In this document: positions 36,817 through 64,000 of the stretch, one piece after another | How the letters are laid out: each line of letters begins with the position of its first letter | Numbering within the stretch: the stretch's first letter is position 1 | Source: an uncultured Eubacteriales bacterium | GTDB taxonomy: Bacteria; Bacillota_I; Bacilli_A; RF39; UBA660 | Assembly (NCBI GenBank): GCA_905211265.1 | Contig: CAJMAC010000001.1 | Span: 70,928 to 134,927, forward strand | Reading direction: 5' to 3' | DNA: 64,000 nt | Position numbers and translations under genes: made by a program | The notes under the pieces: generated by a model | What the model was told of the DNA's origin: nothing | The model's database searches: none | Seen by the model: only the letters and a program-made list of their open reading frames with translations

Positions 36817-36890
36817 TGGAGGACCCAGTCGGATTTGAACCAACGATCAGGGAGTTGCAGTCCCATGCCTTACCACTTGGCTATGAGTCC
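36817..36890 (-). tRNA. tRNA-Cys (anticodon GCA), CCA encoded
   Basis: The minus-strand sequence is GGACTCATAGCCAAGTGGTAAGGCATGGGACTGCAACTCCCTGATCGTTGGTTCAAATCCGACTGGGTCCTCCA. Acceptor stem GGACTCA/TGGGTCC has one G-U pair. The anticodon loop is CTGCAAC. T-arm GTTGG-TTCAAAT-CCGAC. The 3' end is CCA. Confidence 0.9.
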
Positions 36891-36976
36891 ATCGACAATT
36901 AACATTATATCAAAAAAATATATAATTTACAATATAATATATGAAAAAAAATAAGAAAATCAACAACTTTCTTATT

Positions 36977-38098
36977 TTAATTCTCTATTTTGGGAGATAA
37001 TTTAACCTTCTTCTTTATCATTTCATTATTATTATCATATCTATATTCGTATTCTAACCTTATTTTCTTATTCTTATATTTATCAGGTATAGAATAAGTT
37101 AATATATATGTTTTATCAGTATTATATGCAATTTTTTGTCCTTTATAGCCTATTCCATAATTAGAAAAATAACTATAATAACCTCTATTGGCAATAAATT
37201 TTTCATTATTTATATATACTAAAAATTTATCTGTATTTAAAGTTATGTTACCATTATAGTTTGAATGAACTGTAAATTTAACAATTAAATATGTATTACC
37301 ATCTACACTTATCTCTTTTCCTTTTGAATTTTTATTCGTAATATAACTTTCATCAAACTTTAAAGTGTAATAATTATCTAAACTAATTACACTACCTTCT
37401 TTATATGTTGGATTAATTTTAATCGAAGTTACTATTTTATAACCAAAAAATACAATAATAACTGCTAAAATAATATTAATAAAATGTTTATTTTCTACAT
37501 AATAATATTTTAATTCTCTTAAACTTTTTCTTGCTTTTTGTTCTAATTTATTTTTGTCTACTCCTACAGTTAATTCAAATTCTTCATTATCTTCAACTGA
37601 AATATTTAATTCTTCTAAATCTTTTTTAAAATCAAATTTCTTTATATCAAATCCAATTGTTCTAATAACATAAGGGATAATTAATATATATTGACCAATT
37701 AAACAAAACATAGTTATATCTCTTGCTAAACTTATAGTCTTTCTATCCATTATAGAATATTGTAATGAACTTATAACTGAACTAAAATATATATAGCAAC
37801 CTAATATACCAATACACCCTGCTATTGTAATAATATAAAATGTAATTGGTTTCTTTTTTTCTTTAAATAGAAAAAGTATTGCTACTGCTGCTACTACAAT
37901 TACTATTATAGCTAAATACATAAAAATATTAAAATAATCATTAGGTACTACATCAATTAAACTATTAATTAAATACCTTCTGAAAAAGTTTAATATCTTA
38001 GTAGTCCTAGTTATTAAAAATACAAATAAAATACTCATAACTAAATGTATTAATTTAAAATTTTTAATTAAAAATGCATACGGCTTTCTAACTATCAT
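36977..38098 (-). CDS. Hypothetical polytopic membrane protein with beta-rich C-terminal extracellular domain
   Basis: Has about 5 TM helices in the first 230 aa, then a soluble domain with no recognised motif. Confidence 0.55.
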   Translation of the reverse strand: MIVRKPYAFLIKNFKLIHLVMSILFVFLITRTTKILNFFRRYLINSLIDVVPNDYFNIFMYLAIIVIVVAAVAILFLFKEKKKPITFYIITIAGCIGILGCYIYFSSVISSLQYSIMDRKTISLARDITMFCLIGQYILIIPYVIRTIGFDIKKFDFKKDLEELNISVEDNEEFELTVGVDKNKLEQKARKSLRELKYYYVENKHFINIILAVIIVFFGYKIVTSIKINPTYKEGSVISLDNYYTLKFDESYITNKNSKGKEISVDGNTYLIVKFTVHSNYNGNITLNTDKFLVYINNEKFIANRGYYSYFSNYGIGYKGQKIAYNTDKTYILTYSIPDKYKNKKIRLEYEYRYDNNNEMIKKKVKLSPKIEN

Positions 38099-40846: not shown

Positions 40847-41803
40847 TTAGTCTTCTTTTCTAAATGAAAGTCCCATATCTTTAACTTTATCTAATACTTC
40901 TTTTAATGATTTCTTACCTAAGTTTCTAATTTTCATCATTTCATTTTCTGATTTATCAACTAAATCTGCAAGTGTTAATATATTTGCTCTCTTTAAGCAA
41001 TTGTAAGCTCTTACAGAAAAATCTAAATCATCAATTGAAGTTTCAAGTATTTTAACACTAGGATCTTCAGTATTAGATATCATAAGACCAGTTTCATCTG
41101 CAATTTCATTTAAGTTTGCAAGTACTTCAAAATGTTCAATTAAAATTCTACTTGCAAGTGCTATTGATTCTTCTGGAGATATAGAACCATTAGTCCATAC
41201 TTCCATAATTAATTTATCATAGTTGTTATTTTGTCCAACACGAGCATTTTCAACTTCATAGTTAATTCTTTCAATTGGAGAATATAAACTATCAATTGCA
41301 ATAACTCCTGGTTTAGATTTAGTATCTAATATTTTCTTATTATCATCTGCTCTAGTATATCCTCTACCACTTCCGATAGTCATTTCCATATTTAAACTTC
41401 CACCTTCAGCTAATGTAGCGATAACTTGTTCAGGATTTAATATTTCAATATCAGCATCCTTTTCAATATCCCCAGCAGTAACAACACCTGGAGTACTAAC
41501 TGATAATCTTAATTTCTTATTTTCATCAGTTGAATGATTCTTTAAAACAATACTCTTTAAATTAAGTACTATTGCAGTCACATCTTCGATTACACCATCC
41601 ATTTTTTGGAATTCATGTGCAACTCCATCAATCTTAACACTTGTAATTGCATCTCCTGGTAAACTAGATAACATTACTCTTCTTAATGCATTACCTAATG
41701 TTGTACCAAAGCCTCTTTCAAGTGGTTCAATTTCAAATTTTCCATAGTGACTACTTTCAATATATTCTTTTACTTTATAATCTGGTTTTTCAAATTTTAA
41801 CAT
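40847..41803 (-). CDS. rpoA: DNA-directed RNA polymerase subunit alpha
   Basis: Has LERGFGTTLGNALRRVMLSSLPG and the C-terminal domain LDFSVRAYNCLKRANI. Confidence 0.95.
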   Translation of the reverse strand: MLKFEKPDYKVKEYIESSHYGKFEIEPLERGFGTTLGNALRRVMLSSLPGDAITSVKIDGVAHEFQKMDGVIEDVTAIVLNLKSIVLKNHSTDENKKLRLSVSTPGVVTAGDIEKDADIEILNPEQVIATLAEGGSLNMEMTIGSGRGYTRADDNKKILDTKSKPGVIAIDSLYSPIERINYEVENARVGQNNNYDKLIMEVWTNGSISPEESIALASRILIEHFEVLANLNEIADETGLMISNTEDPSVKILETSIDDLDFSVRAYNCLKRANILTLADLVDKSENEMMKIRNLGKKSLKEVLDKVKDMGLSFRKED

Positions 41804-41824
41804 TTTTAAACACTCCTTTTCATT

Positions 41825-42208
41825 TTAACCACGGCGTCTTTTTGGTGGACGACATCCGTTATGTGGAATAGGTGTTACATCTGTTATTGTTTTTACTTCA
41901 AGTCCTGCAGTTTGAAGTGATCTAATTGCAGCTTCTCTTCCTTGACCTAAACCTTTTACAAATACATCAACAGTTTTCATTCCCATTGATACTGCTTCTC
42001 TACCAGCTTTTTCAGCACTAGCTCCAGCAGCAAATGGTGTAGATTTTTTACTACCCTTAACTCCTTGAGTTCCTGAAGCAGCCCAAGCAATTGTATTACC
42101 TTCTTTATCAGTAATAGTAACTATTGTGTTATTAAAAGTTGAACGAACATGTACAACTCCATGTGGTACGTTCTTCTTAACTTTACGTTTTCTTGCTTTA
42201 TAAGCCAT
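41825..42208 (-). CDS. rpsK: 30S ribosomal protein S11
   Basis: Has [17 protein letters not shown] and ends [19 protein letters not shown]. Confidence 0.95.
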
Positions 42209-50418: not shown

Positions 50419-51064
50419 TAGAATTACCTCCCTTTTTGTCTTCTAGTATTTCACCTTTATAGATCCATACTTTTACACCTATTTTACCATAAGTTGTATC
50501 TGCTTCAGAAGTAGCATAATCAATATCTGCTCTTAAAGTATGTAGTGGAATAGTTCCTTCAGAATATCCTTCACCACGAGCGATATCTGCTCCTCCTAAT
50601 CTTCCTGATACTAATGTCTTAATTCCCTTAGCACCAGCTTTCATTGTATTTCTAATAGCTTTCTTTTGTGCTACTCTAAATGAAACACGATTTTCTATGT
50701 TATGGGCAATATTATCTGCAACTAATTGTGCAACTAAATCTGGGTTTTTAACTTCAACAACTGAAATTTGTACTTCTTCATTTACTAGTTTAGAAACTTC
50801 TTTCTTAACTTTTTCAATTTCAACACCGCTTTGTCCAATAATTAATCCTGGTTTTGATGCATGAATAAATACTTCACATCTTTTTTCATTTCTTTCAATA
50901 ACTATTTGAGAAATACCAGCAAGTTTAAATTTCTTAAATAAATATTTTCTTATTTTAACATCATTATTTAAGTATTTAGCAAAATCTTTCTCAGAATACC
51001 ATTTACTTTCCCAGTCTTTATTAATACCTATTCTAAGTCCCACTGGACTAACTTTTTGTCCCAT
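50390..51064 (-). CDS. rpsC: 30S ribosomal protein S3
   Basis: Begins [26 protein letters not shown] lies 8 nt before the ATG at 51064. Confidence 0.95.
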
Positions 51065-51078
51065 TAACATTCCCTCCT

Positions 51079-51426
51079 TTACTTATTTTTCTCACTTACA
51101 ATAACTGTAATGTGACTAGTTTTATGATCATTTCTTCCAACATGTCCCCTTGAATCCATTTTAGGTCTTTTTATTACAAGTCCTTCATCAACATAACATG
51201 CCTTAACGAAAAGATTTTCTTCTTTTAAATTAAAATTATTAACTGCATTACTAGTAGCAGACATTAATACTTTTTCGATAACTCTTGCAGCTTTTTGTGG
51301 TTGATTACTTAAAATTGCAAATGCTTGAGCTACATCTTTACCTCTAATTAAATCAATAATTAGACGAGTTTTTCTTGGAGCTATACGTACTGTCTTTGCT
51401 ACTGCCTTAGCTTCAGTTCTTTCCAT
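51079..51426 (-). CDS. rplV: 50S ribosomal protein L22
   Basis: Has [23 protein letters not shown]. Confidence 0.95.
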
Positions 51427-51447
51427 TATAATCCTCCTTATAAGTTA

Positions 51448-51717
51448 TTACTTAGCTTTATCTGCGCCGTGTCCACCAAATTTACGAGTTGGTGCAAATT
51501 CACCTAATTTATGACCTACCATATCTTCAGTTACATAAACAGGAATAAATTCTTTACCATTATGTACCGCAAAAGTGTGACCAATAAAATCAGGATAAAT
51601 AGTTGAACGACGAGACCAAGTTTTTATAACTTCTTTTTTTCCAGATTCATTTAATAATTGTACCTTTTTAAGTAATCTTTCAAATACATAAGGTCCTTTT
51701 TTTAAACTTCTTGCCAT
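51448..51717 (-). CDS. rpsS: 30S ribosomal protein S19
   Basis: Begins [11 protein letters not shown] and contains [27 protein letters not shown]. Confidence 0.95.
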
Positions 51718-51738
51718 TTTATTTTCATCCTTTCTTTA

Positions 51739-52569
51739 TTATTTAGTACGACGACTAACAATATATTTATTAGATTGTTTATTATTTTTTCTAGTTTTAT
51801 ATCCAAGAGCTGGTTTACCCCATGGAGTCATTGGTCCACTTCTACCAATTGGAGCACGTCCTTCACCACCACCATGAGGGTGATCATTAGGGTTCATAAC
51901 AGAACCACGAACTGTAGGTCTAATACCCATATATCTAGTTCTACCTGCTTTACCAATTTTAACTAAACTATAGTCTTCATTTCCAACTACACCGATTGTA
52001 GCACGACATGTACCAAGTATTTTTCTAGTTTCTCCACTAGATAATCTAATTAAAACATATTTATCTTCACGACCTAATATTTGTGCTGAACTTCCTGCAC
52101 CTCTTGCAAGTTGTCCTCCTTTACCAGGTCTAAGTTCAATATTGTGAATTACAGTACCTACAGGAATATTAGCTATTTCCATAGTATTACCAACTTTAAC
52201 ATCAGTCTTTACTCCACTTTCAACAATATCTCCTACTTTTAATCCCTTAGGAGCAATAATATATGATTTAACACCATCTTTATAAGTAATTAAAGCAATA
52301 TTAGCACTTCTATTTGGATCATATTCAATAGCACTTACCATAGCAGTAATGCCATCTTTATTTCTCTTGAAATCAACCAAACGATATTTTCTTTTAACAC
52401 CGCCACCACGATGTCTAACAGTAATTTTACCTTGGTTATTACGACCATTAGTTTTTTTCTTAGTTACTATTAAACTTTTCTCAGGAGTTGTTTTGGTAAT
52501 TTCTTCACTTGTTAAGACACTTCTTTGTCTTGTACCATTTGTCATTGGTTTATATACTCTTATTGCCAT
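51739..52569 (-). CDS. rplB: 50S ribosomal protein L2
   Basis: Begins [15 protein letters not shown] and contains [14 protein letters not shown]. Confidence 0.95.
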
Positions 52570-52587
52570 TGTCTTTTCCTCCTTTTA

Positions 52588-52866
52588 TTAGTCGAAACTA
52601 ATAGTACTTCCTTTTGCTAATTTTACAATAGCTTTCTTATATTTGTTAGTCATACCAGTATATTTTCCAACTCTTTTCTTTTTAGGATGAGAGTTCGAAG
52701 TATTAACACTTAGTACCTTAACATTAAATATTTTTTCTATTGCTTGTTTTATTTGTACTTTATTTGCTTTTGTATCAACTTTGAATACATACTTTCCTTC
52801 TTGTTCAAGTAAAGCACTCTTTTCAGTGATAACAGGTGCAATGATTATATCTCTATAACTATTCAT
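52588..52866 (-). CDS. rplW: 50S ribosomal protein L23
   Basis: Has [10 protein letters not shown]...[26 protein letters not shown]. Confidence 0.95.
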
Positions 52867-53491
52867 TTCTTAGCACCTCCTCTAATTTATTTAATGCTTC
52901 AACTGTAATTAACATATTATCAGCACTAACTACATCAAATGTATTTAATTCTTCAACTGTAGAAATTTTAACATTTCCTAAATTTCTTGAAGCAAGACAT
53001 ACATTCTCATTTAATTCAGTAACTACTATTAAAACTTTTTTATTAGTTAAGTTTAATTTATTTAAAACTTCAACCATAGATTTAGTTTTATTATTTTCTA
53101 GTTCTAAATTTTCAATAACAATAATTTCTTTATCTAAGTTTTTATAACTTAAAGCAGAAAGTAATGCTAATCTTCTTTCTTTTCTATTTTGTTTTTTAGA
53201 ATAATCTCTTGGTTTTGGTCCAAATGCTATTCCACCACCTGGCCATTGAACTGCTCTTATACTTCCTTGACGAGCATTTCCTGTACCTTTTTGTCTCCAT
53301 GGTTTTCTTCCACCACCAGAAACTTCACTTCTTGTTTTAGTTGAATGAGTACCTTGTCTCATTCCTGCTTGTGCTTTAATGATTGCATTGTGTAATACAG
53401 CATCATTAGGTTCTATTCCAAATATGTTATCTTCTAATTTAATGTCCTTAACTTTTTCACCATTTAAGTTTACTATTTCTAATTTAGACAT
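52859..53491 (-). CDS. rplD: 50S ribosomal protein L4
   Basis: Has [31 protein letters not shown]. Confidence 0.95.
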
Positions 53492-53502
53492 AATATCCTC
53501 CT

Positions 53503-54234
53503 TTACTCACTAACTGGAGTTTCTTCTTCATTAGCCTCAACAACTTCTACTACTTCTTCAGGTTCTTCAATTACATAAGTAATTAAATCTTGTTTTTCAT
53601 TAACAGTACCTTCATGCTTAACAGAAGCCTTAATTAACACTAATGATTTTTTTGGTCCTGGAACATTTCCTTTTACTAAGATAACATTATTCTCTAAATC
53701 AATTTGCACAATTTCCAAGTTTTGAACAGTTACTTGTTCTCCACCCATATGACCTGGCATTTTCTTACCTGGGATTACACGCATTGGAAGTAATGTACCC
53801 ATAGAACCAACACCTCTGTGATATTGGCTACCATGTCCCATTGGTCCACGAGATTGGTTATGACGTTTAATAACACCTTGGAAACCTTTTCCCTTAGAAG
53901 TGCCAGTTACATCAACCATTTCTCCTTCTTCAAATAAATCAGCCTTAATAACTTGACCAAGACTATAATCACTAACATTAACACCTCTAATTTCTTTTAA
54001 GAAGCGCTTAGGTGTAGTGTTAGCTTTTTTTAGATGACCTATTTCAGGTTTGTTTGCTAATTTTTCTCTTTTTTCAACAGCAGCAAGTTGTATAGCATCA
54101 TATCCATCAGTTGCAACAGTCTTAATTTGACTAACAACATTTGGTTCAACTTCAATAACTGTTACTGGAGTTAATTTACCATTCTTAGCAAAAACTTGAG
54201 TCATCCCAATCTTACGACCTAAGATTCCTTTCAT
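53503..54234 (-). CDS. rplC: 50S ribosomal protein L3 with acidic C-terminal extension
   Basis: Begins [15 protein letters not shown] and contains FQGVIKRHN. The tail reads [21 protein letters not shown]. Confidence 0.95.
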
Positions 54235-54248
54235 TTCTCTTTTTCCTC

Positions 54249-54557
54249 CTATAATTTGATTTGTATATCAACACCACTTGGTAAATCTAAATGTTGAAGT
54301 GCTTCAACAGTTTCTTTACTAGGGTTGTTGATGTCAATTAATCTTTTGTGTGTACGCATTTCAAATTGTTCTCTTGAATCTTTGTATTTGTGTACAGCTC
54401 TTAAAATTGTATACTTTTGGATTTCAGTAGGTAATGGAACTGGTCCACTAACTTCTCCACCTGTTCTCTTAACAGTAGCAACAATTTTAGCACATGCATT
54501 ATCAAGTATTTTATGATCATATGCTTTCAATTTGATTCTTACTTTAGTATTTGACAT
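54249..54557 (-). CDS. rpsJ: 30S ribosomal protein S10
   Basis: Has [14 protein letters not shown]...SGPVPLPT...HKRLIDI. It is the first gene of the cluster. Confidence 0.95.
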
Positions 54558-54683
54558 CTTGTATCCTCCCTTCGCCTATATCTATGTATAGACTTGCTCC
54601 GAGCAAATTACCTGATAACCTTGTTTTGTTTTAACAACTTAACCTGGTGTATCAGCAACTTTGCACATCTAAGCCAGTCACAC
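54558..54683 (-). promoter_or_regulatory. Structured 5' leader of the S10 operon (candidate r-protein autoregulatory RNA)
   Basis: A leader of about 125 nt lies between the promoter and the SD (GGGAGGA). It is clearly richer in G+C than other intergenic DNA here. It contains complementary segments such as CTGATA/TATCAG, CTGG/CCAG and TTGCTC/GAGCAA. Confidence 0.45.
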
Positions 54684-54690
54684 TTTTACA

Positions 54691-54719
54691 ATTATACTAA
54701 ATAATTATATGAAAATCAA
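54691..54719 (-). promoter_or_regulatory. Sigma-A type promoter of the S10 operon
   Basis: On the minus strand: TTGATT (54714-54719), 17 nt spacer, TATAAT (54691-54696). Confidence 0.7.
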
Positions 54720-54915
54720 GTGTTTTTTGAACTTTTTTATAAAAAAATCATATTTTCTAACTACTTTTAAAAAATATAATTAAATATAAGAAAATAGCAC
54801 CTAACCTATTTAATAGATTAAGTACTATTTATATATACTAATTAAAATATATTTAGGTAAGGTACAAATAAAATTATTATTATTTTTAATAATTTCTTAT
54901 ATTTTTACAAGTAAA

Positions 54916-54944
54916 TTAACAAAAGAATAATTTTATGCTATAAT
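54916..54944 (+). promoter_or_regulatory. Promoter of the M14/VanY peptidase pair
   Basis: TTAACA (54916-54921), 17 nt spacer, TATAAT (54939-54944), with an upstream TGc (extended -10). The SD AAGGAAAGGA precedes the ATG at 54969. Confidence 0.65.
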
Positions 54945-54968
54945 GATTTAAGGAAAGGATGAATTTAT

Positions 54969-56147
54969 ATGACTAAAATACTTGACTATGAACAAATGAA
55001 TGAAATACTAAATAATTTAGATACAAATATAATAAAAAAAGAAGAGCCAATTGGTTATACAACTTTCAACTACCCTATTAATCATTATACATATGGAAAT
55101 GGACCTTATCATGTAATATTAATCGCTGGAACTCATGCCTCAGAACTTATAAGTAATGTGTTTTTAATTAATTTTATGAAGGAATTATCAAATGGAAAAA
55201 TTAATATTGATAAAAATGAATATACAATACATTTTATCCCAATAGTCAATCCAGAAGGAACAATAATAGTAACAAGTGCAATTAGAAATATCATAAAAAA
55301 TACAGATGATGAATCAAAAGAACAATTAGCCTGTATGACATATTACTTTAATTCAAAATTAGAAGATGATTACGCCGAAAAATATAATGATAAAAGTATT
55401 AAGCTACATCAACATATGTTTAGATATGCAACTCCAGATATAATAGATGATAAACACAAAGAATTAAAAGAGCATATAAAATACTTGATAAATAAATATA
55501 ATATTCCCGACGGTTCGTTAATTAATTGGAGCAGTAATGGTAATGGAATAGATTTAAATGCCAATATTGAATTTGGAGAATATCTAGATAAGATTAATAA
55601 CGCTAAAAAAAATAATCAAACATTATATAATTCTTCAATAACAAGATTAAATACCATCAGTTGCACTACACCTGGTCCATTAGGATGTCCAACAATAGAT
55701 TTTCCATTTAAAGAAGAACCTGAAAATACTGCATTATGGAATTTATATAACAATATTAAAAATAATTATAAATTAATTGGAGGAATAATATATCATAGTT
55801 GTGGTAATGTTATTTATTATTTAGATGAAATGAAAGAATATAACCCATGGAATAAATTATTTAGCATAGATGATATAGCATACAATAAAGAAGTTGCTAA
55901 AAAATATGCTGAAATAACTAATTATAAGTTAGGAACACCAAATACATATACTACAATGGATGCTAAAATAAAATCAATTGTACCAGGTACTTTATTAGTA
56001 GAACTTGGAGGTATTAGATCTACACCACTTTCGCAGTTTATTGACTATTACCCTAAAAGCTTTTATACTGAAACAATAGAATTAAATACAAAAGCAATAC
56101 CAATAGTTATTGAAGAAATGAAAAAGCAATATATAAGGAGAAAATAA
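54969..56147 (+). CDS. M14-family zinc carboxypeptidase (gamma-D-glutamyl-meso-DAP peptidase-like)
   Basis: Has an HxxE zinc motif in LIAGTHASELISN and family-like NPEG (IVNPEGT). No signal peptide is present. Confidence 0.7.
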   Translation: MTKILDYEQMNEILNNLDTNIIKKEEPIGYTTFNYPINHYTYGNGPYHVILIAGTHASELISNVFLINFMKELSNGKINIDKNEYTIHFIPIVNPEGTIIVTSAIRNIIKNTDDESKEQLACMTYYFNSKLEDDYAEKYNDKSIKLHQHMFRYATPDIIDDKHKELKEHIKYLINKYNIPDGSLINWSSNGNGIDLNANIEFGEYLDKINNAKKNNQTLYNSSITRLNTISCTTPGPLGCPTIDFPFKEEPENTALWNLYNNIKNNYKLIGGIIYHSCGNVIYYLDEMKEYNPWNKLFSIDDIAYNKEVAKKYAEITNYKLGTPNTYTTMDAKIKSIVPGTLLVELGGIRSTPLSQFIDYYPKSFYTETIELNTKAIPIVIEEMKKQYIRRK

Positions 56148-56148
56148 T

Positions 56149-56727
56149 ATGAATTATGAAGTAATTGTAAACAAAGAAAATCCTATTAATGATTATGATA
56201 TTCCAACAAACTTAACCGAAATTGGAATGGATAGTGCTAAAATAATAGAAAGAAAAACATTTTTAGAAAATAAAACTGCAATTAATTTTAATAAAATGGT
56301 CAAAGAATGTAATAAACATTTTAAAAATAAAATAATTCCAAACTCAGGTTTTAGAACAATTAAAGAACAACAAGAAATATTAGATTTTTATCTTGACCCA
56401 AATCAAAGAGGATTAGATGCTTATAACTCAGTTGCTTTACCCAAAACATCAGAACATCATACAGGCTTAGCAATAGATGTTGCAATGATTAAAAATGGTG
56501 TATATACTGATGATTTAGAAGATACCGAAGAAGAAATAAAATGGTTACATAATAATTGTTACAAATATGGTTTTATTCTAAGATACCCAAAGGGAAAAGA
56601 AAACATAACGGGATATAGCTATGAACCATGGCATTTTAGATATGTTGGAGATATTGCAGAATACTTAACAAAAAATAATTTAACATTAGAAGAATACCAA
56701 GAAATGAAAAAGCATAAACATAAATAA
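56149..56727 (+). CDS. VanY-type (M15B) D-alanyl-D-alanine carboxypeptidase
   Basis: Has SGFRTIKEQQ, SEHHTGLAIDV and EPWHFRYVG motifs. The start lies 2 nt after the M14 gene stop. Confidence 0.85.
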   Translation: MNYEVIVNKENPINDYDIPTNLTEIGMDSAKIIERKTFLENKTAINFNKMVKECNKHFKNKIIPNSGFRTIKEQQEILDFYLDPNQRGLDAYNSVALPKTSEHHTGLAIDVAMIKNGVYTDDLEDTEEEIKWLHNNCYKYGFILRYPKGKENITGYSYEPWHFRYVGDIAEYLTKNNLTLEEYQEMKKHKHK

Positions 56728-56765
56728 AAAATCAATATTTAGATTAATTTCTATCTATTGATTTT
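56728..56765. terminator. Bidirectional terminator between the VanY-like gene (+) and truA (-)
   Basis: A 10-bp stem, AAAATCAATA (56728-56737) / TATTGATTTT (56756-56765), has an additional inner 4-bp helix. T-runs flank it on both strands. Confidence 0.65.
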
Positions 56766-56780
56766 TATTATTTTTTAATA

Positions 56781-57521
56781 TTAATAAAACACATTCTTTA
56801 AATATAACCCTTCAGGATTAGCAGTCTTACCTGCTTTAGTTCTATCTTCTTCATTTAAGATAGTTATAATTTCTTCACTTTTTCTTTTACCTTCACCTAT
56901 TTCAATTAGAGTACCTACAATATTTCTTACCATATATCTTAAGAATCCTGTACCTACAAAGGATAAAGTAATTTTATTTAAATCTTTACTATCTCTAATT
57001 AAAATAGTTTGAGATATTGTTCTAATATAATCATTTTTTTCTTCATCTGTTTTAGTAAAAGATTTAAAATTATGTGTTCCTTCAATATATTTCATTGCTC
57101 GTTCCATTTCTACTACATCTAATTTCTTATTATATTGATATACATAATTTCTTTCTAATGGATTATATTCCCCCATATTAATTATATATATATATTCTTT
57201 ACCTAAAGCATTAAATCTAGCATGAAAGTCTTCATTTACATTTTCTATTTTTTTTACATAGATATCTTCCGGTAAAAGACTATTAATACCTTTCATTAAT
57301 TTATCAATTGGAATATTAGTATCCATATCAAAATGAGCTTTCTGATTAATTGCATGTACCTTAGCATCAGTCCTTCCAGTTGCATGAACTTCAACTTTTT
57401 TATTATCATTAATTTGTTTTAATACTTTTTCAAGTTCCCCTTGTACAGTTCTTTCTTTTACTTGTTTTTGATAGCCACTAAAATTAGTACCATCATAAGA
57501 TAAAGTCATTAAATATCTCAT
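56781..57521 (-). CDS. truA: tRNA pseudouridine(38-40) synthase
   Basis: Has YDGTNFSGYQKQ and the catalytic GRTDAKVHA. Confidence 0.95.
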   Translation of the reverse strand: MRYLMTLSYDGTNFSGYQKQVKERTVQGELEKVLKQINDNKKVEVHATGRTDAKVHAINQKAHFDMDTNIPIDKLMKGINSLLPEDIYVKKIENVNEDFHARFNALGKEYIYIINMGEYNPLERNYVYQYNKKLDVVEMERAMKYIEGTHNFKSFTKTDEEKNDYIRTISQTILIRDSKDLNKITLSFVGTGFLRYMVRNIVGTLIEIGEGKRKSEEIITILNEEDRTKAGKTANPEGLYLKNVFY

Positions 57522-57524
57522 AAA

Positions 57525-58262
57525 CTACCTCCATAAACAAAGAATTAAAATAATTATATTTATGCTAAGAAGAAAAGTATCAATGTATTTCCATTTATTT
57601 AATCTATAATTAGTTCTACTAATACCATAATTATATAACCTAACTTCCATAATATCTGATAATTCATCTGCTTTTTTTAAAGATAAATATATCATAGGTA
57701 TAAATATATTAGATAAAGAAATAATCTTTGTTTTTAAATTTTTGTCAAAATCTACCCCTCTTAATCCTTGTGCTTTTATTATTCTTTCAGCCTGCATAGT
57801 TAGAATTGGTATAAATCTTAAAGCAAGTGTAATAGTAAGTGCAATATCATTTATAGGAAGAATTTTATTAAAAATAGATAAAACTCTTTCTAATCCATAA
57901 GTAATTTCCATTGGTGCAGTAGTTAATGTAAGAATAGCACTTATTAATACTAAATAAACAATTCTAAGTATCATAAATATTGTATTAACTATACCTACTC
58001 CAAATATTAAATTAATTATAATTATAAATATAATAAATACTCTTAAAGTATAAATATTTTTTAAATATATTTTAATATCTATCTTACTAAGTAACATAAT
58101 AATAACTAAATATATAAGTATTATACTAAAATCTATAAAACTATTACTAATAACTACAGATACAATCATTATAAATAAACATATTATTTTAAAAATAGGA
58201 TTTAATTTATGAATAAGAGAATCTTTTAAATAATAATTACCTATATTATATTTGTTTATCAT
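57525..58262 (-). CDS. ecfT: Energy-coupling factor transporter transmembrane component
   Basis: A polytopic membrane protein that follows the two ECF ATPase genes. Contains the ARG-type coupling helix region LALRFIP...AQGLRG. Confidence 0.85.
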   Translation of the reverse strand: MINKYNIGNYYLKDSLIHKLNPIFKIICLFIMIVSVVISNSFIDFSIILIYLVIIMLLSKIDIKIYLKNIYTLRVFIIFIIIINLIFGVGIVNTIFMILRIVYLVLISAILTLTTAPMEITYGLERVLSIFNKILPINDIALTITLALRFIPILTMQAERIIKAQGLRGVDFDKNLKTKIISLSNIFIPMIYLSLKKADELSDIMEVRLYNYGISRTNYRLNKWKYIDTFLLSINIIILILCLWR

Positions 58263-59067
58263 TTTTTATTTCCTCAACTAATTTATCTATATCCAAAGTC
58301 TTAGTAAATTTCTTATTCTTAATTTTATCACATCTATTTATAAAATTAATTATTGGAGGTACTTCCATACCACTTCTTTTTAATTTATCTATGTTATCTA
58401 ATAATTTATCACTAGTTATATCTAAATTAACTTTGCCTTTCTTTAAAAGTAATATATTACCTTCTAACTTCATAACAAAGTTAATATCATTAGTTATTAT
58501 TATTATAGTTTTATTATATTTTTCTTTTATTTTTTTAATTAACTCTACCAATTCATATATACTTTTATCATCTAAATATATAGTAGGTTCATCTAAAATA
58601 ATTACCTTAGGATTTAAAGATAAAGCAATTGCAATAGCAAGTTTTTCTCTTTCACCACCAGATAATGTAAATGGATTTTGTTCTAAATAACTAAGAGGTA
58701 AACCAACCATTTTTAATGCTAAAGAAACTTGTTTATCTAATTTATCTAATTTAAATTTATTATTTTTTAATCCAAATTCTATTTCTTCTTTTACACTAGT
58801 AGTAAAAAATTCTTCCATTGGTTCTTGAAATACATATCCTACTTGTCTTCTTATATAAGTAAAATCTTTTGTTTCACTATCTATTATATTACCTAAAATA
58901 CTTAAATTACCTTTAGTAGGAAGAACTAAACCAAGCATTAAATAACTAAGTAAAGTTTTACCAGACCCTGATGATCCAATTAAATAAGTAATCTCACCTT
59001 CTTTAAAAGTATAATTAATATCTTTTAATTTATCTAAATAACTAACATTATTAAACTTTATGGCCAT
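58246..59067 (-). CDS. ecfA2: Energy-coupling factor transporter ATPase (second)
   Basis: Has Walker A GSSGSGKT, the signature LSGGEREK, and Walker B IILDEPT. Confidence 0.9.
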   Translation of the reverse strand: MAIKFNNVSYLDKLKDINYTFKEGEITYLIGSSGSGKTLLSYLMLGLVLPTKGNLSILGNIIDSETKDFTYIRRQVGYVFQEPMEEFFTTSVKEEIEFGLKNNKFKLDKLDKQVSLALKMVGLPLSYLEQNPFTLSGGEREKLAIAIALSLNPKVIILDEPTIYLDDKSIYELVELIKKIKEKYNKTIIIITNDINFVMKLEGNILLLKKGKVNLDITSDKLLDNIDKLKRSGMEVPPIINFINRCDKIKNKKFTKTLDIDKLVEEIKNDKQI

Positions 59068-59864
59068 AAATCCTCCATCAAATCAATAGTATTAGTATAT
59101 ATTTTATTTATAATATGTTCATTAATTAGTTTATTAGATAATTTAATAACAAAGGGTAAATCTAATTTCAAAGAATTAATTTTATTACTACTATAAACAT
59201 CTTTAACACTACCATCTAAATATATATTACCATTATTTAATACAACAATTCTATCAGAATATAAAGTATTTTCTAGATTATGAGTAATCATAATAATAGT
59301 AAGATTTCTTTCTTTTTGATATTTTTTTAATATCTCTAACACATCTTTTTTATCAGACGGTGTTAATTGATGCAATGCTTCATCTAGTATTAATATCTTT
59401 GGATTAAAAATAAGACTACTTGCAATAGCAACTCTTTGTTTTTCAGAATTAGTTAGGTTCCTAGGTTCAGAATATAATATATTTTCTAATTTGAATATTT
59501 TTGATACTTCATTAATAGCATTAGTAATATCTTCTTTATCATATTGTAAATTTTCTAAAGAAAAAGCTAAATCATCAATAACAGTTTCACTAACAAAATG
59601 ATTATCAAGATTATCAAATACTACTCCTATTTTTCTTCTTATATCTTTTAAATAAAATGAATTTAAGTTATAACCATCTATATTTATATATCCATCATAT
59701 TTAATTAAACCAGTAAGTATTCTTATTAATGTTGTTTTACCACTCCCATTTGGACCAATAACACTAACAAAACTTCCCTTATTTATTTTTAAATCTAAAT
59801 TACTAAATACTACCTTAGACTTATATCTAAAACATAATTTATCTATTTTAATTATATCTTCCAT
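59058..59864 (-). CDS. ecfA1: Energy-coupling factor transporter ATPase (first)
   Basis: Has Walker A GPNGSGKTT, a degenerate signature LTNSEKQR, and Walker B LILDEA. Confidence 0.9.
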   Translation of the reverse strand: MEDIIKIDKLCFRYKSKVVFSNLDLKINKGSFVSVIGPNGSGKTTLIRILTGLIKYDGYINIDGYNLNSFYLKDIRRKIGVVFDNLDNHFVSETVIDDLAFSLENLQYDKEDITNAINEVSKIFKLENILYSEPRNLTNSEKQRVAIASSLIFNPKILILDEALHQLTPSDKKDVLEILKKYQKERNLTIIMITHNLENTLYSDRIVVLNNGNIYLDGSVKDVYSSNKINSLKLDLPFVIKLSNKLINEHIINKIYTNTIDLMEDLWP

Positions 59865-59901
59865 AAAACCACAACCTAATATTATTATAATAAATAAACA
59901 T

Positions 59902-59937
59902 TAAAAAAACAAGTAAAGAACATATATTTTACTTGTT
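59902..59937 (-). terminator. Rho-independent terminator after the 347-aa hypothetical gene
   Basis: Stem AACAAGTAAA (59908-59917) / TTTACTTGTT (59928-59937), followed on the minus strand by TTTTTTAATG. Confidence 0.6.
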
Positions 59938-60972
59938 TTTATTAGTTTTTACTTTAACCTTTTCCTTATTACTAGGTATATTCAATATAACTGGAGCATT
60001 TATATCTTCGATTAAAGAACTAATTTCATCTTTATGTTGTTCTTCATCTAATAATTTTAATACTTCTGTTTTCATTCCTTCTAGAAATATAGAACAATGT
60101 ATTCTTGTGTAATCAGGAGTATTTAAAGTTAAATTAATTTCATTTTTCTTACTATTATTTAATGATTCCATATATTTATTTAATTCTCCAATAATTAATG
60201 TTTTATATTTCTTTTTATTTTCAACAGATAGTTTATTAATTAATTCATCTAATTCTTTTGCTCTAATAATTATATCTTCATGATATTTATTCTTATTATT
60301 CTCGTTAGTTTTTCCTTTACTTTCAGAAATAAGTTTATTATAGTTTTCTTCTTGCAAAAATTTTTCATCAATTTCTTTTAAATATCTATTAGATTTAATT
60401 TCTTTACATGTCTTAATTAAAGTACATATATTAAAAAATAAAGTAGATATAATACCAGTATTAGCTAATACCATAAACAATTTAAATATAGGCGAAATAT
60501 TAAAATTTATGTCAAATATACATGTTAAAAGTATAGATATTATCCCACAATGAAGGCTAACAAAAAACATAAGAACATGCTCATTACCTAAACTAGCCAA
60601 ATTCTTTTTAAATATATTTTTAAACCCTTTATTCATATTATCTCTTTTTTCTTCAACTTCTTTTATATACTTTTTAGCTATATTAAATAAATTGTCTAGT
60701 TCTAAATCTATTTGTTTATTTTTTTCTTGATAGTACAAATAGTTAGAATCATATATAGTATACTTAGTAATAGTAGAGTCTTCATTTAATACACCATAAT
60801 AATAACTATCATCATCTCTACCACAATATATAATTCTTTTTTTATCTATTAACTTACCCAATTTCTTTAAAAATTCATTTGCAAAAACTTCATGATAGTT
60901 AATTATAAATTTACTATTATATTTATCATTTTTTCTATAAATTAGATACTCTTCATTATATTCAAATTCCAT
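59929..60972 (-). CDS. Hypothetical membrane protein (central TM hairpins, coiled-coil C-terminal half)
   Basis: A 347-aa ORF with two or three hydrophobic helices (VLMFFVSLHCGIISILLTCIF, LFMVLANTGIISTLFFNICTLI). No recognised motif. Confidence 0.55.
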   Translation of the reverse strand: MEFEYNEEYLIYRKNDKYNSKFIINYHEVFANEFLKKLGKLIDKKRIIYCGRDDDSYYYGVLNEDSTITKYTIYDSNYLYYQEKNKQIDLELDNLFNIAKKYIKEVEEKRDNMNKGFKNIFKKNLASLGNEHVLMFFVSLHCGIISILLTCIFDINFNISPIFKLFMVLANTGIISTLFFNICTLIKTCKEIKSNRYLKEIDEKFLQEENYNKLISESKGKTNENNKNKYHEDIIIRAKELDELINKLSVENKKKYKTLIIGELNKYMESLNNSKKNEINLTLNTPDYTRIHCSIFLEGMKTEVLKLLDEEQHKDEISSLIEDINAPVILNIPSNKEKVKVKTNKNK

Positions 60973-61018
60973 AAAATCTTTCTCCTTTTTAAGTAGTTTT
61001 TATTTTATCACAATAACA

Positions 61019-61048
61019 TTAAAAAAACAAGCGTGATTTATACTTGTT
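61019..61048 (-). terminator. Probable terminator after the CNNM-family gene
   Basis: Stem AACAAG (61026-61031) / CTTGTT (61043-61048), followed on the minus strand by TTTTTTTAATG. The stem is short. Confidence 0.45.
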
Positions 61049-61054
61049 TCATAT

Positions 61055-62317
61055 CTATATATCATATACATAATTAGTAGTAAAAGTAAGTTCTATTTTA
61101 GTAGGATTACCTGCGTCAATTGATAATATCTTCATTTTTATATTTTTATATTGAAATTCAGCATTCTTCTTAATTCTATTACTATCTAATTCCTTTAACC
61201 AACCTACAAAAGTTTTAGATTTAATATTAGGTACTTCCATATTTTCTAAATAATTATTAAAGAAATATTTTACTTCAATATTAGGATTAATTTGGAAAGT
61301 ATGTAAACCTATTTCTACAACATTTTGTGGTAAATCATCATATTCATCATATATTTCTCCGACTAACTCTTCGATTATGTCTTCTAGAGTAACTATACCT
61401 AAGAAATTATGATCTTCACTATTATCTACTACTATAGCCATATGCATTCTACTTTTTTGTATTTTATCTAATGCATAAGATAATTTTCTACCAGGGGTAA
61501 TATATATAACATCTTTAATTAATGATTGAATAGATATTTTTTTATTATTTAAAATATCATCAATTAAATCTCCTTCATGAACTATACCAATTACTTTATT
61601 AGTATTTCTACATATAACAGGTATTCTAGAATATTTTTGACTTGATATAATATCTCTAATAGTTTGTTCGCTAGCATCATCATACAAAAATATTACATCT
61701 TCTTTTTTTAGCATAACGCTAGATACTCTTTTATCATCAAAACTAACAGCATTTTGAATTAGTTCACTTTCTCCTTGATTAAGTACACCCTCATACTCAA
61801 TAGTTTGTACTATTTCTAATAATTCATCTTCAGTTGCAGTTATTTTCTTTTCATTCTTATTAAACTTATTTTCAAACTTTTGAACTAGTTTAGTAATAGG
61901 AAACATAATATTAACTAATACTGTAAATATTGGAGTAACTTTATACATTATATCTAAAGCATTATTTTTACCAAAAATTTTAGGAGTTATTTCTCCAAAC
62001 ATTAAAATAACAATAGTCATTATAATTGTAGCATATGCTACTCCAGAAGAACCTAAACTTTTAGAAAATATATAAGTAGCAAGTGAAGTAGATAAAATAT
62101 TAACAATATTATTAAATATAAGTATTGTTGTAACAGTTTCAGAATATTTTTTAACTAACCTATATACTTTAATAGATTTTTTATCTCCTTTTCTTGCTTT
62201 CGCTTTAATTCTAATTATACTAACCGAAGATAAAGCAGTTTCAGTCATTGAACATAATGCTGAAATACCAATTAAAATTATTAAAATAAAAATATACACT
62301 AACAAGTGGGGATCCAC
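61055..62317 (-). CDS. CNNM/CorC-family transporter (DUF21 - CBS pair - CorC/HlyC domains)
   Basis: Has an N-terminal 4-TM DUF21 region, tandem CBS domains (SRIPVICRNTNKVIGIVHEGDL; HMAIVVDNSEDHNFLGIVTLEDIIEELVGEI), and the C-terminal transporter-associated domain. The start is GTG at 62317, preceded by GAGGAAG. Confidence 0.9.
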   Translation of the reverse strand: MDPHLLVYIFILIILIGISALCSMTETALSSVSIIRIKAKARKGDKKSIKVYRLVKKYSETVTTILIFNNIVNILSTSLATYIFSKSLGSSGVAYATIIMTIVILMFGEITPKIFGKNNALDIMYKVTPIFTVLVNIMFPITKLVQKFENKFNKNEKKITATEDELLEIVQTIEYEGVLNQGESELIQNAVSFDDKRVSSVMLKKEDVIFLYDDASEQTIRDIISSQKYSRIPVICRNTNKVIGIVHEGDLIDDILNNKKISIQSLIKDVIYITPGRKLSYALDKIQKSRMHMAIVVDNSEDHNFLGIVTLEDIIEELVGEIYDEYDDLPQNVVEIGLHTFQINPNIEVKYFFNNYLENMEVPNIKSKTFVGWLKELDSNRIKKNAEFQYKNIKMKILSIDAGNPTKIELTFTTNYVYDI

Positions 62318-62596
62318 TTAAATCACTTCCTCTAAATTGTTCATTAATGATGTATTATCACATACACCTAATTTTTTTTCATTAAAATTTTCAATTAAAT
62401 AGTTTCTATTTAATTTTATAAATGTAGATTTATTATAATTATAACTATAATAATTATGATTATAACTTATTAATACAAAGTATTTTTTATTAATACTATT
62501 TACATATAAATTATTTATTTCTATATTATCATCAGGATAATATTTATTAAATAATTCTTTATATATTTTTTTGCATATTCTATGGTAACATCTATT
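62318..62596 (-). pseudogene. 5'-truncated remnant of a host gene (C-terminal 92 codons only) coupled to the CNNM gene
   Basis: The minus-strand frame is open from 62596 to the TAA at 62318-62320 and encodes NRCYHRICKKIYKELFNKYYPDDNIEINNLYVNS...CDNTSLMNNLEEVI. No ATG, GTG or TTG could give more than 8 aa. The frame is closed upstream by TGA (62597-62599). Its TAA abuts the GTG start of the next gene (TAAGTG). Composition matches the host, for example 6 G+C in the 60 nt 62401-62460. Confidence 0.6.
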
Positions 62597-63113
62597 TCAT
62601 CTAAGGTGGAACCACATTACTTGCTTGCTTTATTAATCCTTTTAACTCTGCAACTTGTTCTTGTAATTCCTTTATTCTAGGATCTTCTTGTTTCAAATTT
62701 TCCTCCTAATAATCCAACTACTTGAGTATTGCATCGCACTTATTCATCTCTTCTTCATACTTAGCTAAAGCCTCCTTCTTTGCCTTGTATTCATTATAAT
62801 TATTCTTTACCATTGTTATTATCTATTGTTTATCTGTTGCTATAGTTAAACCTACAGCTCCATCAGTTACAATAGACTTATTATCTTCTACAGATAATTT
62901 CTTCTATTCGCCGTCACACCCTATTGTTATATCAACTAGCTTCTTTCTATTCTAATTTGGTAGAGGAAACTATTGAGGAGGAAGGGGTTCATCATAAACC
63001 TTGGATACATTCATTACAGTACCTTTATAATAAGTAGTACTTTTCTTAAACGTTCCAGTTATTTCTAATACATGTATAGGATCTCCTATATTTAATTGTG
63101 CAAATGTTATCAT
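62559..63113 (-). CDS. Hypothetical phage-like protein, 184 codons with nine in-frame TAG codons (readable only if TAG is sense, probably Gln)
   Basis: Verified triplet by triplet: the frame runs from ATG (63111-63113) to TAA (62559-62561). It has TAG at 62580, 62592, 62601, 62706, 62718, 62823, 62904, 62952 and 62970 (plus-strand cta) and no TAA or TGA. Read with TAG=Q it gives MITFAQLNIGDPIHVLEITGTFKKSTTYYKGTVMNVSKVYDEPLPPQQFPLPNQNRKKLVDITIGCDGEQKKLSVEDNKSIVTDGAVGLTIATDKQQIITMVKNNYNEYKAKKEALAKYEEEMNKCDAILKQLDYQEENLKQEDPRIKELQEQVAELKGLIKQASNVVPPQMKQMLPQNMQKNI. No SD is seen before the ATG. Confidence 0.6.
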
Positions 63114-63127
63114 AATAAGTATTTATT

Positions 63128-63149
63128 AAAGGGCTCCTAAGAGCCCTTT
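63128..63149 (-). terminator. GC-rich hairpin terminator between the phage-like genes
   Basis: Stem AAAGGGCTC (63128-63136) / GAGCCCTTT (63141-63149) with a 4-nt loop, directly after the TAA of the 144-aa gene. The T-tract is better on the plus strand, so it may act in both directions. Confidence 0.55.
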
Positions 63150-63160
63150 TTGATTAAAGA

Positions 63161-63595
63161 TTACGCAGTAGCAGTAGTAGGCGGTATAATATGGTTTACA
63201 GTTTGAAATATACCATTTGATTTATTATAGTAAATCAGATATCTATTACCAGTGGATATTTCTTCTGTAGCCATTTGATCGCCTGAACCATTTATAAGAG
63301 CTCTAGCCCCTGTAGAAGTAGTAGTCGTAGGACTTACTTGATTAGCTGTTCTAGTAGTATCTATACTTACTAAAGAAGCTGCAGTTACTGTTGTAGCAGG
63401 AGTATTTACTATATTAAGTAAAAATATTCCCTCACAAGGAAGTTGTCTCCAGATTCTAGGACAGATACCATAAGTAACAGTATTATTGGTAGTATCAGTG
63501 GTAACATATATTGTTCTCAATGAAGGTATACCAAAGTTATCTATAGTTCTTACTCTACTTCTATTAAATGTATAAGGATTAAAATTAAAAAACAT
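63161..63595 (-). CDS. Hypothetical phage-like protein (144 aa, Thr-rich)
   Basis: A strong SD, AAAGGAGG, lies 6 nt before the ATG at 63595 (MFFNFNPYTFNRSRV...). The longer ORF-track start overlaps the upstream gene. Codon usage is richer in G+C than the host. No motif recognised. Confidence 0.65.
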   Translation of the reverse strand: MFFNFNPYTFNRSRVRTIDNFGIPSLRTIYVTTDTTNNTVTYGICPRIWRQLPCEGIFLLNIVNTPATTVTAASLVSIDTTRTANQVSPTTTTSTGARALINGSGDQMATEEISTGNRYLIYYNKSNGIFQTVNHIIPPTTATA

Positions 63596-63609
63596 AATTA
63601 CCTCCTTTC

Positions 63610-64000
63610 TTAGCATCCACAGCCACATCCATCACAGTAACCATTGTAACCATAGCCTGTAAAGCCACCATTACATCCATACGGGTTACAAGTCAGATAT
63701 GCAGGAACCGGAGTAGGTCTTAACTGATTAACAATGTTAGCGGTTTGAGCTTGCTGAGAAGCAGCTAAAGCCAACTGATTGTTTTCTTGACGCAATGAGT
63801 CAATCTTGTTCTGCATTTCACGCATTTCAAGTTGACAGAATTTGTCATTAATTATCTGAGTCTAAGCGTCTATTTTAGCACCCAAGATGTTGAACTGAGT
63901 ATTAGCGTTGCTTGTCAGAGTATTAGTCTGATTTACAATAGCTAATTGGCTCTCATAACCCTGAGTAGTTATAGCGTTACGTACATCACAGCAGCAAGAA
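63610..64000 (-). CDS. Hypothetical phage-like coiled-coil protein with Cys/Gly-rich C-terminus; 5' end outside the window; one in-frame TAG
   Basis: The frame is open from the window edge (64000) to the TAA at 63610-63612, with a single TAG at 63862-63864. It reads ...SCCCDVRNAITTQGYESQLAIVNQTNTLTSNANTQFNILGAKIDA[TAG]TQIINDKFCQLEMREMQNKIDSLRQENNQLALAASQQAQTANIVNQLRPTPVPAYLTCNPYGCNGGFTGYGYNGYCDGCGCGC. No SD precedes the ORF-track ATG at 63825. Confidence 0.6.

Follow-up and report, generated by a model that had tools for sequence, protein, structure and literature searches.

The window, by which we mean the whole stretch of 64,000 nucleotides that was analysed, carries DNA of an uncultured Bacilli bacterium (a MAG species) up to position 62567 and ends in three phage genes, g3, g2 and g1. 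The following features lie around the point where the two meet:

61055 to 62317, minus strand: gene for a CNNM/CBS-domain membrane protein of 420 aa, ending in TAG; the last intact bacterial gene before the junction
62318 to 62567, minus strand: 3' remnant of a gene for a 342-aa protein, with the last 82 codons and the stop; the first 260 codons are missing
62559 to 62567, minus strand: AAT ATA TAA, the pseudo-end of g1, which is DNA of the neighbouring bacterium
62568 to 64000, minus strand: crAss-like phage fragment (Crassvirales, Suoliviridae, Loutivirinae, Buchavirus-like), derived from the central part of the late/structural module
62568 to 63113, minus strand: g1, the first 182 codons for a 188-aa phage protein homologous to cr56_1 gp47
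63120 to 63147, minus strand: GC-rich hairpin GGGCTC-TTAG-GAGCCC between g2 and g1, read directly from the sequence
63161 to 63595, minus strand: g2, complete gene for a 144-aa phage protein, ending in TAA and without TAG
63610 to 64000, minus strand: g3, the C-terminal 129 codons for a 287-aa phage protein of phrog_16490

The original prediction had described a minus-strand frame running from the ATG at 63113 to a TAA at 62559-62561. Recounting gave 184 sense codons with nine TAG and neither TAA nor TGA, as claimed; the nine TAG codons, most likely read as Gln, lie in g1 at 62970-72, 62952-54, 62904-06, 62823-25, 62718-20, 62706-08, 62601-03, 62592-94, and 62580-82. A TAA is indeed present in frame at 62559, but it belongs to bacterial DNA. 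It is an accident of the junction and not the stop of g1, because the phage sequence ends at 62568. The window lacks the six codons that close the native gene (AMNEAS), together with its stop and its terminator hairpin: in native phages the protein ends in NMQKAMNEAS, while in the window NMQK is followed across the junction by NI and the bacterial TAA. The C-terminal half of the g1 product is a coiled coil, and the protein is without assigned function.

The hairpin between g2 and g1 resembles a terminator, yet it failed the T-run criterion of the consensus terminator scan, which returned zero sites meeting its criteria in 62300-64000. The g2 gene is preceded by a strong SD (AAAGGAGG). Its exact protein occurs in 286 blocks of the assembly collection, and all ten g2-bearing contigs listed (57-100 kb) display a crAss-like phage gene context. 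Searches of Pfam, PHROGs, and PDB sequences with the three products gave a match for g3 only (phrog_16490, function unknown, E=1.2e-16), none being obtained for g2 in any of them. The g3 profile alignment runs across the single in-frame TAG of this gene at 63862-63864; this additional TAG had been noted before, and the frame is otherwise open up to the window edge. In the g3 protein, a TM segment at the N-terminus is accompanied by a coiled coil and by a tail rich in Cys and Gly, and its RefSeq annotation reads 'spike protein/glycoprotein'. Sequence matches in the PDB were weak coiled-coil similarities only, e.g. to coronavirus HR1 at an E of about 0.01, and a similarity of this type is probably the source of the label.

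The phage identity of positions 62568-64000 was evident from free phage genomes. Over its entire 1,433 bp the segment is 100% identical, without gaps, to three free crAss-like phage contigs of 57-99 kb (L014, L015, and L018), where CrAss_Ring_2, CrAss_Ring_1, and crAss_MUZ come after g1. The genes flanking the segment in free phages encode a holin, a LysB-like protein, DUF7841, and the two ring and the muzzle proteins just named. Buchavirus faecalis cr56_1 (NC_055890.1; Crassvirales, Suoliviridae, Loutivirinae), an uncultured phage of a human-gut species represented in RefSeq by CDSs that read through in-frame TAGs, shares 99.5% nucleotide identity with window positions 62568-63497, and the identity to cr52_1 is 79%. 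The GC content is 0.34 in 62568-64000 versus 0.25 in the rest of the window. Membership in the Crassvirales and Suoliviridae is given by identity and synteny, the signature genes themselves lying outside the window. The segment is thus a 1,433-bp internal piece of the genome of a Buchavirus-like crAss-like phage (Suoliviridae, 'Delta' group), in which g3, g2, and g1 are flanked by the lysis cassette on one side and by the tail ring and muzzle genes on the other. The parent phage belongs to a lytic podovirus lineage of gut Bacteroidota with late genes in genetic code 15 (TAG = Gln).

In the phage segment TAG is a sense codon. The chance of finding no TAA or TGA in 184 codons is 1.6e-6 as calculated from base composition, none of 20,000 shuffles reached zero, and TAA/TGA codons number 19 and 17 in the two remaining frames of this stretch. 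When TAG was read as sense, ORF coverage of 62568-64000 rose from 0.33 to 0.97; the gain in coding density from table 11 to table 15 that the original prediction called for is therefore present, and it recurs in cr56_1 (0.66 to 0.91), where it is confined to 28-97 kb. TAG occurs in frame without TAA or TGA, and g2, g3, and native g1 all stop at TAA. Among ten Suoliviridae phages of five genera, most encode g1 as one gene of 186-188 aa; two homologs deviate in their RefSeq annotation (232 and 138 aa). The TAG positions shift between these relatives and interchange with CAA/CAG, and in-frame TAA or TGA never occurs.

A tRNA with the anticodon CUA, for which a search had been proposed, is absent from the window, where ARAGORN detected only a bacterial tRNA-Cys, but present in the phage genome about 35 kb from the segment. 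In cr56_1 it is located at 92120-92199 and annotated by RefSeq as tRNA-Gln. The exact 49-mer of this tRNA and the exact 43-mer of the 3' end of g1 also occur together in four IMG/VR contigs. The tRNA begins UGGGG...CCCCA, in the manner of bacterial tRNA-Gln. None of the 89 CDSs of cr56_1 ends in TAG. In-frame TAGs number 252 in its minus-strand CDSs, which comprise the late genes, versus 5 in plus-strand CDSs, the early genes being nearly TAG-free, in line with the expectation that recoding would affect mainly late genes and come with a suppressor tRNA. In the complete phage genome the tRNA(CUA) is tRNA-Gln-like and opens the TAG-rich late block, directly upstream of the terminase. It would decode the TAGs scattered through the late genes; the early and replication genes hardly contain TAG, and all genes end in TAA or TGA. 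Such recoding of TAG to Gln, mostly in late genes and via suppressor tRNAs, has been described for Delta-group crAss-like phages (Yutin et al. 2021, PMC7886860). We infer that the tRNA(CUA) is charged with Gln, which is supported by published metaproteomics demonstrating Gln at TAG in a Suoliviridae phage other than that of g1-g3 (Peters et al. 2022, PMC9523058; also PMC10136315).

Taken together, TAG in the phage segment most likely encodes Gln, as originally proposed, judging from what homologs carry at the TAG positions. Opposite the TAGs of g1, Gln is the commonest residue (54 of 134); in L017, a contig nearly identical in sequence, Gln occupies two of the TAG sites of the window, and both cr52_1 and the cultured Bacteroides phage C3_41T2LP have Gln opposite the TAG of g3. 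There is a very slim chance that TAG is sense but specifies another amino acid (Pyl, Tyr, Trp, or Leu), or that it is passed by ribosomal bypass without a suppressor tRNA. Such a reading could draw on the distant relatives, where E, K, P, T, H, or S stands in some of the TAG columns, and on the label 'tRNA-Pyl' from ARAGORN, a name that the program gives to any CUA anticodon. Against it stand the predominance of Gln in the alignments, the codon usage of g1 (9 TAG, 8 CAA, and 0 CAG), the likeness of the tRNA(CUA) to tRNA-Gln, and the metaproteomic detection of Gln at TAG. Pyrrolysine in particular, dismissed from the start, is rejected on the alignment with Gln and on a TAG frequency of 4.8% of codons, which is far too high. 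The chance that 62559-63113 is instead a string of short TAG-ended genes or a decayed pseudogene is practically nil. Table 11 does yield ORFs of only 31-47 aa, but both possibilities, already doubted in the original prediction, are refuted by the conservation of the full-length frame in most of the ten phages, by TAGs that move and swap with Gln codons without TAA or TGA lesions in relatives, by the low probability of so long an open frame, and by the single CDS annotated in RefSeq.

The neighbouring bacterium reads TAG as a stop, as had been stated. In its part of the window, TAG terminates 25 ORFs that start with ATG and span at least 55 codons. The majority are real genes, and TAG stands at the normal C-termini of rpmI, infC, cysS, infA, rplO, rpsH, rpsN, rpsJ, rplP, rpsC, and rplD; two of the ORFs, at 41686-41871 and 52349-52591 on the plus strand, look spurious and antisense. 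With TAG read as sense, ORFs covered 0.945 of 1-62567 instead of 0.929, a small gain that the TGA control equalled. Code 4 or code 15 in the bacterium was rejected on this ground and on that of the normal C-termini.

The breakpoint between the two kinds of DNA could be placed exactly. Bacterial contigs (L003-L012) are identical to the window up to 62567, one of them (L010) at 100% from 51055 on, and the phage contigs are identical to it from 62568 on, L014 and L015 at 100% identity to position 64000. Both parents were thus found uninterrupted at 100% identity in independent assemblies, and the join 62567/62568 is blunt, with 0 nt of overlap or repeat between them. On the phage side, mid-way in the late operon, it interrupts g1 7 codons (21 nt) short of the native stop, and on the bacterial side it interrupts the 342-aa gene, which is without assigned function and complete in all ten independent bacterial contigs listed. 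The junction itself is unique to the window: its 40-mer had no match in genome_contigs, metagenome_contigs, or viral_contigs, and it was seen in none of the ten bacterial contigs listed and in none of 35 phage contigs (10 ENA/Logan and 25 IMG/VR), all of which continue as phage past this point. The bacterial-side 40-mer likewise had no match in genome_contigs, although it is identical in all ten ENA contigs of the bacterium.

These observations do not support the prediction that the segment is the end of an integrated element beside its host. The break lies inside genes on both sides, in mid-operon, and recurs in no other assembly. Only one junction is visible in the window, and it shows no att-like feature and no integrase context. 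A prophage would be recognised by a junction at the phage end or attP, an integrase, att repeats, and intact phage genes, by a reproducible junction or an occupied as opposed to an empty site, and by a plausible host; here the break is internal and intragenic, the junction is seen in the window only, and a Bacilli MAG species stands beside a phage with Bacteroidota hosts. The Crassvirales infect Bacteroidota (PMC7886860, PMC10136315) and are considered non-lysogenic (PMC10136315, PMC7886860), which also speaks against the neighbour as host.

We therefore consider a known recoded crAss-like phage fragment, artificially joined to Bacilli DNA, to be the explanation of the whole locus, with a probability of about 90%. 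The adjacency of phage and low-GC Bacilli genome would be a blunt join of unrelated sequences with one gene truncated on each side, and the junction most likely arose from assembly, binning, or contig concatenation and not from biology. The likeliest cause would be that two records of a MAG, one a bacterial contig and the other a phage contig binned in error, were set end to end, or that a chimeric contig was built. An origin as a de Bruijn-graph chimera was rejected, since such a chimera would normally leave a k-mer common to both sides and the overlap here is 0 nt; this favours plain concatenation or a long-read or ligation chimera, without proving either. A real insertion, in which a fragment or the whole genome of a crAss-like phage reached the Bacilli chromosome by illegitimate recombination or a route not yet known, so that a recoded phage truly resides in and perhaps infects a TAG-stop Bacillota host, appears very unlikely. 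In its favour, the window runs from one sequence into the other without any Ns, the shared k-mer that a de Bruijn chimera needs is absent, and the 82-aa partial product expected from a bacterial contig end had no record in an exact look-up of the gene collection, which is weak evidence. However, the break cuts a late phage gene shortly before its stop as well as a bacterial gene, the junction is missing from all three collections and from the contigs of both parents, the two sides differ in GC content, and the order is held to be non-lysogenic with hosts in another phylum. The complete identity to both free parents moreover leaves no time since the event. That a piece or all of the TAG-recoded phage entered the chromosome of an uncultured gut Bacilli bacterium very recently is likewise very unlikely.

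The recoding of TAG to Gln in late genes of the Suoliviridae is already known, published, and validated by proteomics. With the artificial junction as the preferred reading, the practical value of the locus is one of caution: a mis-binned or concatenated phage contig can yield the signature of a recoded phage at the edge of a bacterial window, and with such contigs it is unsafe to call the neighbour a TAG-stop host. If the junction were true, it would be evidence that a crAss-like phage had entered the chromosome of a member of the Bacillota, and it would imply either DNA delivery across phyla or, for the Crassvirales, a host range or a lysogeny-like state that has gone unrecognised.

Among known systems, the recoded temperate phages and prophages of standard-code hosts (Borges et al., bioRxiv 10.1101/2021.08.26.457843), which the original prediction had as its model, share with the window that TAG-recoded phage DNA adjoins standard-code bacterial DNA; in those prophages an integrase is present and the att junctions coincide with the phage genome ends. 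In contrast, the junction in the window is blunt, intragenic on both sides, in mid-operon, and unique, the phage belongs to an order not known to lysogenise, and the bacterium is of the wrong phylum. In the Bacteroides phage C3_41T2LP (OR296439.1), a cultured phage that grows on Bacteroides uniformis and has a genome of 74 kb and a record lacking Crassvirales classification, the g3 homolog is 76% identical in amino acids where the two overlap; unlike g3 it has no in-frame TAG, Gln occupying the TAG position of the window. B. faecalis cr56_1 is far closer: all nine TAG codons of g1 in the window recur in its gp47, and it combines a tRNA(CUA) and the absence of TAG-ended CDSs with TAG-rich late and nearly TAG-free early genes. 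It differs in that identity ends at window position 63497, inside g2, and that no g3 ('spike') or DUF7841 gene is annotated at the matching position. With the Delta-group crAss-like phages as a whole (PMC7886860, PMC9523058), the segment shares the family, the code change, its restriction to late genes, and the suppressor-tRNA mechanism; there is no difference in kind, the window holding 3 of about 90 genes of such a phage, without the tRNA.

Outside the phage part of the window, TAG terminates 25 ORFs that start with ATG and span 55 or more codons, including those for ribosomal proteins, IF1, IF3 and CysRS, each at its usual C-terminus. When TAG was read as a sense codon, ORF coverage of 1-62567 rose from 0.929 to 0.945, a gain not above that of a TGA control, whereas coverage of 62568-64000 rose from 0.33 to 0.97. 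The original prediction that the bacterium uses TAG as a stop is thus borne out. The phage part and the adjoining bacterial genes comprise the following features:

61055-62317, gene of a CNNM/CBS protein (bacterial)
62318-62567, last 82 codons of a 342-aa gene (bacterial)
62568-63113, minus strand, g1 (phage, cut copy)
63161-63595, minus strand, g2 (phage)
63610-64000, minus strand, g3 (phage, C-terminal part)

From ATG 63113 to TAA 62559-62561, the minus-strand frame of g1 holds 184 sense codons with nine TAGs and no TAA or TGA, while the remaining two frames of 62559-63113 contain 19 and 17 TAA/TGA codons. The probability of finding neither codon in 184 codons is 1.6e-6 from base composition, and none of 20,000 shuffles reached zero. 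The g3 part has a single in-frame TAG (63862-63864), its frame being open up to the window edge. Direct reading confirmed the TAGs noted earlier in both genes. The GC content steps from about 0.20-0.25 to 0.30-0.40 near ~62550.

Window positions 62400-64000 were compared with GenBank phages by blastn. Only crAss-like phages matched: CrAssphage cr56_1 (NC_055890.1, Buchavirus faecalis, Suoliviridae, Loutivirinae) with 99.5% identity over 62568-63497, cr52_1 (Buchavirus copri) with 79% over 62569-63899, and other Suoliviridae more weakly. The exact 144-aa g2 product is present in 286 indexed blocks of the assembly collection; all ten contigs shown from these (57-100 kb) have a crAss-like phage gene context, and three of the ten (L014, L015 and L018) match the window gaplessly at 100% identity across 62568-64000. 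In the matching phages, the genes run as follows:

tail fibre, Phage_tail_C protein, Mtd-like tail protein, reverse transcriptase, holin, LysB-like protein
then DUF7841, g3 (287 aa), g2 (144 aa), g1 (188 aa)
then CrAss_Ring_2, GIY-YIG endonuclease, CrAss_Ring_1, crAss_MUZ

Because of this order, the fragment 62568-64000 is placed in the middle of the late structural/lysis block and not at a genome end, where the original prediction had put it. The 99.5% identity to cr56_1 breaks off sharply at 63497, within g2 (63497-64000 versus cr56_1 57742-58178). Neither g3 ('spike') nor DUF7841 is annotated in cr56_1 between gp47, its g1 homolog, and the LysB-like gene, whereas both occur in the window's phage and in cr52_1; mosaicism or a deletion seems to separate these very close phages. 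Outside the window, about 3 kb upstream of g3, an RVT_1 reverse transcriptase adjoins a tail protein annotated as major tropism determinant-like (phage contig L013, 4693-7198; equivalents in L014-L022, L001 and L002), an arrangement that looks like a diversity-generating retroelement cassette.

The join between 62567 and 62568 was examined using ten independent bacterial contigs encoding the exact CNNM/CBS protein. All are identical or nearly identical to the window through 62567 (L010 at 100% over 51055-62567) and diverge from 62568 on, and in all ten an intact 342-aa gene abuts the CNNM gene. Identity of the phage contigs to the window begins at 62568. Across the join, the phage reads ATGCAAAAA followed by GCAATG, the bacterium GGATT followed by AATATATAAAG, and the window ATGCAAAAA followed directly by AATATATAAAG, with zero bases common to both parents. 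Native g1 ends in ...NMQKAMNEAS and TAA, after which comes a GC-rich hairpin that has a T-run; in the window ...NMQK is followed by N, I and TAA from bacterial DNA. The TAA at 62559, previously taken as the stop of the gene, thus arose by chance where the two sequences meet. Each of the 25 IMG/VR contigs with the g1 43-mer runs on as phage past this point, and the junction 40-mer had no match in GTDB genomes, JGI metagenomes or IMG/VR. A look-up of the partial bacterial product expected from a contig ending at the junction gave no match.

The junction is most probably an artefact (probability about 0.9), either two records placed end to end or a chimeric read or contig, since the join is blunt with zero overlap, a gene is cut on each side, both parts are 100% identical to free parents, the junction was seen nowhere else and the partners belong to different phyla. 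End-to-end records could, for example, be a bacterial contig of a MAG followed by a mis-binned phage contig. No k-mer is shared at the join, which speaks against a de Bruijn-graph chimera and would favour simple concatenation. The features of the junction are unlike a prophage end, and the same observations make a real insertion of phage DNA into the bacterium's genome very improbable; a recoded element adjoining a TAG-stop host, as originally proposed, is not supported. Crassvirales have Bacteroidota as hosts and are considered non-lysogenising (PMC10136315).

The neighbouring bacterium belongs to an uncultured species represented by MAGs; a protein that clusters with its EcfA at >90% identity carries the label 'MAG: ... 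[Bacilli bacterium]'. The 40-mer 62470-62509, identical in the window and all ten ENA contigs, had no exact match in GTDB representative genomes, and the representative of this common gut Bacilli species may differ there. Downstream of the CNNM gene the locus varies among strains (window 59929-60972; L003-L012 at 11346-13540), with one 347-aa gene (window, L003, L009, L010, L012), two paralog-like genes of 345 and 346-349 aa (L004, L005, L007, L008) or an IS605 OrfB/TnpB-like gene (L006, L011). The presence of a VanY and M14 peptidase pair also differs. Local sign flips of GC and AT skew at 34000-37000 and 54000-57000 match short plus-strand gene blocks in the otherwise minus-strand window and reflect ordinary orientation switching, not foreign DNA. 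At 40-54 kb, where the GC content is 0.29-0.32, lies the ribosomal protein operon.

The g3 protein combines a transmembrane segment at its N-terminus with a long coiled coil and a tail rich in Cys and Gly. RefSeq labels on its homologs ('spike protein/glycoprotein', 'outer capsid protein/viral fiber') seem to go back to a weak match of the coiled coil to coronavirus spike HR1 (E about 0.008-0.02). Given the transmembrane segment, the tail and the adjoining holin and LysB-like genes, a membrane or lysis-related role appears no less plausible than a virion fibre. For g1 and g2, no relatives above noise were found in Pfam, PHROG or PDB.

Homologs of g1 were aligned from ten phages of five genera (Buchavirus, Blohavirus, Aurodevirus, Buorbuivirus and unnamed contigs). 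They are mostly single genes of 186-188 aa, two RefSeq annotations deviating (232 and 138 aa). Each contains 4-9 TAGs at partly shifted positions, and TAA and TGA never occur in frame; g1 is one conserved gene. In TAG-containing columns Gln is the commonest other residue (54/134), and at two g1 sites where the window has TAG, the near-identical phage contig L017 has Gln. At the position of the g3 TAG, Gln is found both in cr52_1 and in Bacteroides phage C3_41T2LP (cultured; host Bacteroides uniformis), whose g3 homolog lacks in-frame TAGs, and a match to the PHROG profile phrog_16490 spans this TAG (E=1.2e-16). Judged from these alignments, TAG is a sense codon in 62568-64000, most likely decoded as Gln. 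In the g3 homolog of L020 (9126-9986), codon 50 is TGA versus TGG (Trp) in near-identical L022, splitting g3 into calls of 49 and 195 aa; the cause is either a nonsense mutation in this TAG-recoded phage or a sequencing error.

The complete relative cr56_1 has one tRNA (92120-92199, late strand), directly upstream of a homing endonuclease and terminase, with anticodon CUA (ARAGORN; Rfam tRNA score 50.7 bits). It is annotated as tRNA-Gln in RefSeq, and its acceptor stem, UGGGG...CCCCA, resembles that of bacterial tRNA-Gln. Its exact 49-mer and the exact g1 3'-end 43-mer co-occur on four IMG/VR contigs. None of 89 RefSeq CDSs ends in TAG. Minus-strand CDSs carry 252 in-frame TAGs, nearly all within 28-91 kb, compared to five in 36 plus-strand early/replication genes and two in 12 small genes upstream of the tRNA. 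The TAG density of gp47 is among the highest (9/188 codons; CAG unused). With TAG as sense, the fraction covered by ORFs of 100 or more codons increased from 0.66 to 0.91, the whole gain lying within 28-97 kb. The predicted recoding is correct but already known: the species is in RefSeq, its CDSs are read through in-frame TAGs and tRNA-Gln(CUA) is annotated. TAG to Gln reassignment was confirmed by metaproteomics in a Suoliviridae phage (PMC9523058; reviewed in PMC10136315), and the pattern in cr56_1 is that published for Delta-group crAss-like phages, which reassign TAG to Gln chiefly in late genes via suppressor tRNAs (PMC7886860).
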